Sequence record: PQ666540
Length of the DNA stretch: 64,000 bases
Reading direction: 5' to 3' (one strand)
DNA from: Shigella phage sb2
Shown here: positions 62,286 through 62,924 of the stretch, piece by piece
Layout: every line of letters starts with the position of its first letter
Position numbering within the stretch: position 1 is the stretch's first letter
The notes under the pieces: generated by a model
What the model was told of the DNA's origin: nothing
The model's database searches: none
Seen by the model: only the letters and a program-made list of their open reading frames with translations
Translations under genes and position numbers: made by a program

Positions 62286-62473
62286 TATTCTTCTACGTGC
62301 TGTTTACGACCTTTCTTATCAATAAAGGTATATTCAACGAATGTTCCAATATAATCTTTATCTACATCATGTGGACTATTAATTGGGCATTTAGTACGGC
62401 AAATGCGTTCCCATTGACGAATAATTTCCACTTTGTTTTTAGGATCAAATGGATGCGGGTAATGTACTTTCAT
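62261..62473 (-). CDS. hypothetical protein
   Basis: 70-aa ORF. Confidence 0.4.
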   Translation of the reverse strand: MKVHYPHPFDPKNKVEIIRQWERICRTKCPINSPHDVDKDYIGTFVEYTFIDKKGRKQHVEEYCLKVTWL

Positions 62474-62924
62474 AATCCACCACTATTAAATCAATATCAG
62501 GAGTAAACATGTCGATTAATTTAGAAACCTTATCCCAATCACCGCCAGCAATACCGCAACCTATGCGTGGAATGTAAATTACTGGTTTAAACAAAAGGGT
62601 TTCTGCCTGTAGATTTAATTCTATCATGCAGTTTACTAAAGCACCATAATCAAGATTAGGACCCGGTTCGTATTGCGTATACAAATTATAGCACATACTA
62701 AATCCTGTAGGATTATGTTTAAAAACAATAGACATATCGCCTAATTTATCACGAGAACCGTACTCGGTAGTGGTTTTATCTATTTCTAAAATTTTGGGAT
62801 AGGCTCTTGCTAATTGACCTGCTACGCCAGAGCCCATTGTGTGGAAGCAATTACACCCGTGCGCAATAATATTACCTTGAAGAAATAGGGCGACAATATC
62901 GCCCTTGATATATTTTACAATCAT
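62445..62924 (-). CDS. macro-domain protein (ADP-ribose binding/processing)
   Basis: 159 aa with HGCNCFHTMGSGVAGQL and PRIGCGIAGGDW motifs typical of macro domains. Confidence 0.6.
   Translation of the reverse strand: MIVKYIKGDIVALFLQGNIIAHGCNCFHTMGSGVAGQLARAYPKILEIDKTTTEYGSRDKLGDMSIVFKHNPTGFSMCYNLYTQYEPGPNLDYGALVNCMIELNLQAETLLFKPVIYIPRIGCGIAGGDWDKVSKLIDMFTPDIDLIVVDYESTLPASI

Follow-up and report, generated by a model that had tools for sequence, protein, structure and literature searches.

A stand-alone macrodomain protein encoded between vs and tk.3 in a T4-like Shigella phage: an ortholog of T4 tk.4/adfM and probable eraser of DNA ADP-ribosylation

In the DarTG2 system, DarT2 modifies thymidine, and DarG2 is a macrodomain protein (PMC11825919). 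T4 without adfA and adfN is still resistant to DarTG2 (PMC11825919), so that another factor was to be expected. In November 2025, a preprint on HIDEN-SEQ reported that tk.4 was the single significant match when a T4 transposon library was grown on a DarTG2 host (bioRxiv 10.1101/2025.11.20.689424). A clean knockout of tk.4 sensitised T4 to DarTG2, and no other growth phenotype of tk.4 was reported (bioRxiv 10.1101/2025.11.20.689424). The gene was renamed adfM, and removal of ADP-ribose from DNA was proposed without biochemistry, as what "seems likely" (bioRxiv 10.1101/2025.11.20.689424). The requirement for DarTG2 resistance concerns the T4 allele only, and the evidence in that preprint is genetic. 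A literature search under several names gave no biochemical assay of a T-even Tk.4, only the HIDEN-SEQ preprint and comparative-genomics papers. The name AdfM has also been given to gp104 of PhiKZ (Cell Rep 2026), which was shown biochemically to remove DarT2-made ADP-ribose from a TNTC oligonucleotide (PMC13309987).

Cellular macrodomains with related activities have been described in more detail. With high efficiency, SCO6735 of Streptomyces coelicolor takes ADP-ribose off thymidines in DNA, and it rescues cells from DarT (PMC9411070). In this protein Gln85 occupies the position of the lysine found in other members; both Q85A and Q85E are inactive and N27S is nearly so, and the proposed mechanism is water-mediated, with positioning by the backbone and the glutamine (PMC9411070). 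TARG1 also reverses T-ADPr on DNA, as mentioned in PMC8501950. The class formed by TARG1, DarG and SCO6735 is documented on thymine- or uracil-linked and on Glu-linked ADP-ribose, not on the Arg-linked form (PMC9411070, PMC13036486).

The tk.4 locus and its alleles

The window, that is, the whole stretch of DNA analysed here, covers 64,000 nucleotides of Shigella phage sb2 (sequence record PQ666540), and its source phage is a T4-like Tequatrovirus. An ORF at 62445..62924 (minus strand, stop codon included) starts with ATG and encodes a single-domain macrodomain protein of 159 amino acids. The original prediction had given this ORF and quoted two motifs from it, and it was exact on both counts: the motifs are found in the translation, AHGCNCFHTMGSGVAGQ as residues 21-37 and PRIGCGIAGGDW as residues 119-130. 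It had also placed the gene next to the tk cluster, and tk indeed lies at 60935-61516, with a Pfam TK match of 1.7e-60. The gene order in T4 is tk, tk.1, tk.2, tk.3, tk.4, vs, and the order vs, tk.4, tk.3 is also annotated in T4, Ec_MI-02 and PP01. From its position, the ORF is the ortholog of tk.4 of T4, now called adfM (anti-DarT factor Macrodomain). In T4 it is annotated as "phosphatase; contains A1pp phosphatase motif", and in other GenBank records as "phosphatase" or "macro domain-containing protein".

All real genes around tk.4 are on the minus strand, and the plus-strand ORFs overlapping it are short and without support. The start codon of tk.4 and the stop codon of vs, the gene upstream, overlap in an ATGA read from the sequence at 62921..62924 (minus strand), an arrangement that suggests co-transcription and possibly translational coupling. 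At its 3' end, tk.4 overlaps tk.3 by 29 nt. A scan of 60300-64000 for promoter and terminator consensus sequences gave 11 promoter-like sites against 14.8 +/- 4.6 in shuffles, an absence of excess that carries no information on expression.

Several other features were observed around the gene. A perfect 8-bp GC-rich hairpin, AGGGCGATATTGTCGCCCT, lies at 62887-62905 inside codons 7-13 of tk.4, in a window of otherwise 35% GC, and it is terminator-like on both strands in the consensus scan. The genes tk.1 and tk.2 (61518-61888, minus strand) are tandem paralogs matching PF24219 (DUF7438) at 8e-15 and 2e-19. Between tk.2 and tk.3 (61885-62285, minus strand) lie two small ORFs that have no T4 counterpart and are both present in Ec_MI-02: one of 58 aa at 61885-62061 (minus strand) with no Pfam match, and a Cys-rich one of 75 aa at 62058-62285 (minus strand) that matches PF23895 Phage_zn_bind at 4e-29. 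On the other side, in comparison with PP01, a single G is missing from gene vs between 63215 and 63214 (TCTGCGTTAGCAG in PP01, TCTGCTTAGCAG in the window). Thus, translation from the canonical start (ATG 63261-63259) reaches a TAG at 63213-63211 after 16 codons (window 63211-63261, minus strand). The ORF restarts at an internal ATG (63241), back in the Vs frame, and this restarted form is without the hydrophobic, signal-peptide-like N-terminus of Ec_MI-02 (MTKILVLCIGLISFSA). The missing G is a genuine frameshift or else an error of sequencing. Gene vs has been reported to be conditionally important for T4 in minimal medium (bioRxiv 10.1101/2025.11.20.689424).

The window protein is 99% identical to the tk.4 product of PP01. 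To T4 Tk.4 (NP_049723) it shows 58% identity and 75% positives over 155 aa, ungapped, with E = 8e-71. At the DNA level, tk.4 matches 557 phage records with identity up to 99.2%, and tblastn with the protein finds matches in 2767 phage records. The DNA identity to T4 is 94.9% in the flank at 58968-61887 and 75.5% in the tk.3-tk.4-vs patch at 62259-63035, and 61888-62258 is without a T4 counterpart. The drop in identity is sharp and confined to tk.3, tk.4 and the start of vs. Since a patch of 75.5% identity lies within flanks of about 95%, the window tk.4 is a divergent allele in a mosaic patch. Across phage records, the tblastn identities to the window protein fall into a class of 95-99%, one of 60-80% and a large one below 60%; the T4-type alleles, at 53-58%, belong to the last. 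In one T4 isolate, OL964745.1, the tk.4 match comes in two pieces annotated as two macro domain-containing proteins, which suggests that tk.4 is disrupted in that stock.

Fold class and active site

The claim that this ORF encodes a macrodomain is confirmed. When checked against the macro-domain profile of Pfam (PF01661), the protein gives E = 3.7e-8 and 33.8 bits against a gathering cut-off of 22, with the match spanning profile positions 2-117 of 118. PHROG 335 ("phosphatase") matches at E = 4.8e-71, and 781 database homologs are found at E <= 1e-5. An AlphaFold2 model, built on an alignment of 52 homologs with the T4 row left out, has a mean pLDDT of 95.0 and a pTM of 0.89 and shows the three-layer alpha/beta/alpha macro fold. 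The chance of such matches arising at random is far too small to explain them, and the protein belongs to the macro superfamily.

A sequence search of the PDB with the window protein finds BT1257 (2AFC/2FG1, 1e-10), yeast Poa1p, SCO6735 (5E3B), Mycobacterium tuberculosis DarG (5M3I) and human TARG1. The profile made from the 52 homologs finds the same proteins, with BT1257 at 5e-20, TARG1 at 5e-17, SCO6735 at 8e-16, Poa1p at 3e-14, and DarG at 8e-12 and 3e-10. In Foldseek, TARG1, Poa1p, BT1257 and DarG rank at the top for the model. The nearest neighbours in both structure and sequence are thus of the ALC1-like class, and not MacroD, PARG or macroH2A. From the profile and Foldseek matches, Tk.4 is placed in the ALC1-like class with TARG1, DarG, SCO6735 and Poa1p.

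In a family alignment of 52-53 sequences, G8, H22, G23, N25, C26, G33, A35, D49, N80, Y82, Q84, P119, G122, G124 and W130 are invariant, and the two motifs of the original prediction sit on such columns (H22, G23, N25, C26, G33 and A35 in one; G122, G124 and W130 in the other). Codons H22-Q37, HGCNCFHTMGSGVAGQ, at 62814..62861 (minus strand) form the predicted first ADP-ribose-binding and catalytic loop, in which all six of the former residues are invariant. Here H22 is aligned with the histidine of TARG1 'AHCIS' and of BT1257 'THICN', and N25 with the asparagine of BT1257 and the serine of TARG1. Codons N80-Q84 (NLYTQ), at 62673..62687 (minus strand), carry three invariant residues, N80, Y82 and Q84, and place Gln84 where TARG1 and DarG have their catalytic lysine (K84 and K80, respectively). 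In the profile-to-PDB alignment, the family sequence 'NlYtQ' lies on TARG1 'YLITK', whose K is Lys84 by count, and on BT1257 'NMIGQ'. Codons P119-W130 at 62535..62570 (minus strand) form the predicted glycine-rich diphosphate-binding loop, with P119, G122, G124 and W130 invariant. This loop, PRIGCGIAGGDW in Tk.4, aligns with PRIGCGLAGGTW in SCO6735, PRIGCGLAGGKW in BT1257 and PRIGCGLDRLQW in TARG1, and Tk.4 has A126 at the position of the catalytic D125 of TARG1.

The test of catalytic residues named in the original prediction therefore had a divided outcome: the lysine of TARG1 and DarG and the aspartate of TARG1 are absent, and the glutamine, asparagine and histidine of the SCO6735 type are present and invariant. 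H22, N25 and Q84 of Tk.4 align with H24, N27 and Q85 of SCO6735 by way of TARG1 and BT1257; the equivalence of Q84 and Q85 is transitive, through TARG1 K84 and BT1257 and the structural alignment in PMC9411070, the direct alignment to SCO6735 covering the C-terminal loop only. Tk.4 has the whole SCO6735-type pattern: a glutamine where TARG1 has K84, an asparagine and a histidine in the first loop, and a GxAGG loop (G124-G128). Because Gln84 takes the lysine position and there is no equivalent of the aspartate, the chemistry is most likely of the SCO6735 type, and, judged from these alignments, a lysine-dependent mechanism is unlikely.

Probable role and other readings

The window protein, a stand-alone ALC1-like macrodomain orthologous to T4 tk.4/adfM, probably removes DarT2-made thymidine ADP-ribose by SCO6735-type chemistry. 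Reversal of ADP-ribosylation, which the original prediction had listed among its options, is the most likely role in view of the macrodomain class and the DarTG2 phenotype of the T4 ortholog. Another option, degradation of ADP-ribose-derived host signals, found no such backing: the functional data concern T4 Tk.4/AdfM only and are specific to DarTG2 resistance.

In the mechanism proposed here, vs, tk.4 and the tk genes would belong to one leftward transcription unit of the early region, and Tk.4 would be made during infection. DarT2 of a DarTG2 host would ADP-ribosylate thymidines in TNTC motifs of phage single-stranded DNA, leading to a replication block. Tk.4 would bind this ADP-ribose on the single-stranded DNA at replication forks, with the glycine loop P119-W130 holding the diphosphate and the loop H22-Q37 the distal ribose. 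Gln84, locked by Asn25, would position the distal ribose, and a water held by the backbone would act. Hydrolysis of the thymine-ribose bond would then free ADP-ribose, restore the base and make the template replicable. We infer both the enzymatic activity of the window allele and this detailed mechanism. On both strands of the window, 2435 TNTC sites are observed and about 2368 are expected from composition; since the motif is not depleted, the phage does not escape by avoiding it, and targets are available.

Tk.4 could instead mainly bind and inhibit DarT2 stoichiometrically, or act on wider nucleic-acid ADP-ribosylation such as uracil-ADPr RNA, which is unlikely as its principal activity. 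SCO6735 Q85A, though catalytically inactive, inhibits DarT in vitro, and does so more strongly than mutants of DarG or TARG1 (PMC9411070), but Tk.4 is without the DarT-binding domain of DarG (159 aa in comparison with a DarG model of 338 positions), and the fact that Q84, N25 and H22 never vary in the family speaks for selection on catalysis. As for wider substrates, ADP-ribose linked to uracil in RNA is likewise removed by SCO6735, TARG1 and DarG (PMC13036486), although no RNA-uracil ADP-ribosylating defence of E. coli is known in the literature searched. Either activity, binding of DarT2 or action on other modified nucleic acids, could operate alongside DNA de-ADP-ribosylation, not in its place. 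It is very unlikely that Tk.4 has a metabolic role, as an ADP-ribose-1''-phosphate phosphatase or O-acetyl-ADP-ribose deacetylase that clears small NAD-derived metabolites, for example by-products of RNA repair or splicing. This idea underlies the legacy "phosphatase / A1pp" annotation, and Tk.4 resembles Poa1p, an ADP-ribose-1''-phosphate phosphatase, as closely as it resembles DarG. However, the annotation was made by homology only. Among the Poa1p residues probed in mutant structures (H23, S30 and F152), H23 is kept as H22, but S30 corresponds to T29, a conservative change, and F152 is lost to A126; the best Poa1p match is in fact an F152A mutant chain. Many macrodomains have a weak Appr1p phosphatase activity in vitro that is not their biological role. 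A phosphatase would also leave the DarTG2-specific phenotype of T4 delta-tk.4 unexplained.

The original prediction had further connected the protein to the ADP-ribosyltransferases of the phage itself, and it was right that both are encoded in the same genome: ModA lies at 17387-17986 and ModB at 17986-18606, both on the minus strand, 97% and 96% identical to their T4 counterparts. The connection itself found no support. That Tk.4 reverses or reads protein ADP-ribosylation (or RNAylation) by Alt, ModA and ModB is very unlikely, even though both modA and modB are in the window and SCO6735 is partly active on an ADP-ribosylated protein, PARP1 E988Q (PMC9411070). Alt and ModA, transferases of the R-S-E type, modify arginines (PMC8120803, where the residue specificity of ModB is not given), whereas the class to which Tk.4 belongs is known on other linkages, its documented activity on protein being on acidic-residue-linked ADP-ribose. 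The nearest folds of Tk.4 are TARG1, DarG and BT1257. In addition, tk.4 is about 44 kb away from modA and modB and not co-located with them. The sole reported growth phenotype of tk.4 is, again, on DarTG2 (bioRxiv 10.1101/2025.11.20.689424). An arginine-specific macrodomain, MavL, is among the proteins cited in PMC13036486, so that the idea is unsupported rather than impossible.

With removal of thymidine ADP-ribose from DNA as the preferred reading, the divergence among alleles may be considered. At all columns with at least 85% conservation, the window allele has the consensus residue of the family, and the functional T4 allele departs from it at three such columns (positions 126, 127 and 137). 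The window allele could differ in specificity from the T4 allele that was tested, since the two share only 58% identity. A more speculative and rather doubtful proposal is that T-even AdfM is a Gln-type 'genome protector', SCO6735/BT1257-like and lysine-independent rather than a captured DarG, and that its two classes of tk.4 allele, about 58% identical in Tequatrovirus genomes that otherwise share about 95%, could reflect diversifying selection for DarT2 variants or for wider substrates. The latter would include uracil-ADPr on RNA and Glu/Asp-ADPr on protein, together with direct toxin binding.

On the favoured reading, T-even phages would carry layered enzymatic erasers of host DNA ADP-ribosylation, with AdfN (NADAR) for guanine and DarT1, and Tk.4/AdfM for thymine and DarT2. 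For T4 gp61.2 (AdfA), another anti-DarT factor, the window holds a weak partial match at 23076-23369 (minus strand; 35% over 103 aa, E = 2e-6), so the adfA locus is highly divergent here. The assignment gives a function to a family of T4 "dark matter" genes present in thousands of phage genomes, and it has already been published as a preprint. The finding is not new, because this gene, the domain that it encodes and what its T4 ortholog does have all been recorded before. The additions made here are modest: the Gln-type active site, the separation from PhiKZ AdfM, the description of a divergent yet canonical allele, and the lack of support for the ModA/ModB link.

Comparison with described macrodomains

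The closest known relative with a phenotype, T4 Tk.4, is encoded in the same place between vs and tk.3 and shares all invariant residues of the family. The window protein is 4 aa longer at the C-terminus, and its glycine loop is the canonical 'GCGIAGGDW', whereas T4 has 'GAGIGKGNW'. SCO6735 (PDB 5E3B) and Bacteroides BT1257 (2AFC/2FG1) are, like Tk.4, ALC1-like macrodomains of the Gln type, although their identity to Tk.4 is only about 27-29%. They are cellular and associated with DNA damage, and are not factors of phage counter-defence. Tk.4 has Gly23 where SCO6735 has Val25, the residue whose backbone holds the proposed catalytic water, and the loop after the glutamine is shorter in Tk.4 than in BT1257. 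TARG1/OARD1 (4J5R) is the best Foldseek match (E = 4e-10, TM 0.74/0.83), but its K84/D125 dyad corresponds to Q84/A126 in Tk.4.

DarG was also considered as a match for Tk.4. The DarG equivalog model (NCBIfam NF048014) gives 28.9 bits against a cut-off of 250 and covers only profile positions 2-142 of 338, and the PADLOC match to DarG is weak and partial. With scores so far below the cut-off, Tk.4 is not a DarG equivalog. The DarG macrodomain (Thermus aquaticus 5M31, M. tuberculosis 5M3I) uses Lys80 for catalysis where Tk.4 has Gln84, and DarG carries a C-terminal DarT-binding domain that Tk.4 does not have. Unlike darG, the tk.4 gene has no adjoining toxin gene: it lies between vs and tk.3, and none of ten neighbouring ORFs has an ART-like Pfam match. 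The one bacterial homolog examined, from Pelagimonas, is a stand-alone protein too.

PhiKZ gp104 resembles Tk.4 in being a stand-alone phage macrodomain that counters DarTG2. In sequence, the two match at 27% over 33 aa with E = 0.001 (gp104 as translated from the construct in PMC13309987), and gp104 is of the Lys type, DarG-like, with 'FPTKDNW'. Since PhiKZ AdfM is nearly unrelated in sequence and of the Lys type, its biochemistry is not transferable to Tk.4 by homology. Judging from these residues and alignments, the T-even and PhiKZ AdfM proteins appear to belong to different sub-lineages of macrodomains and were possibly acquired separately.
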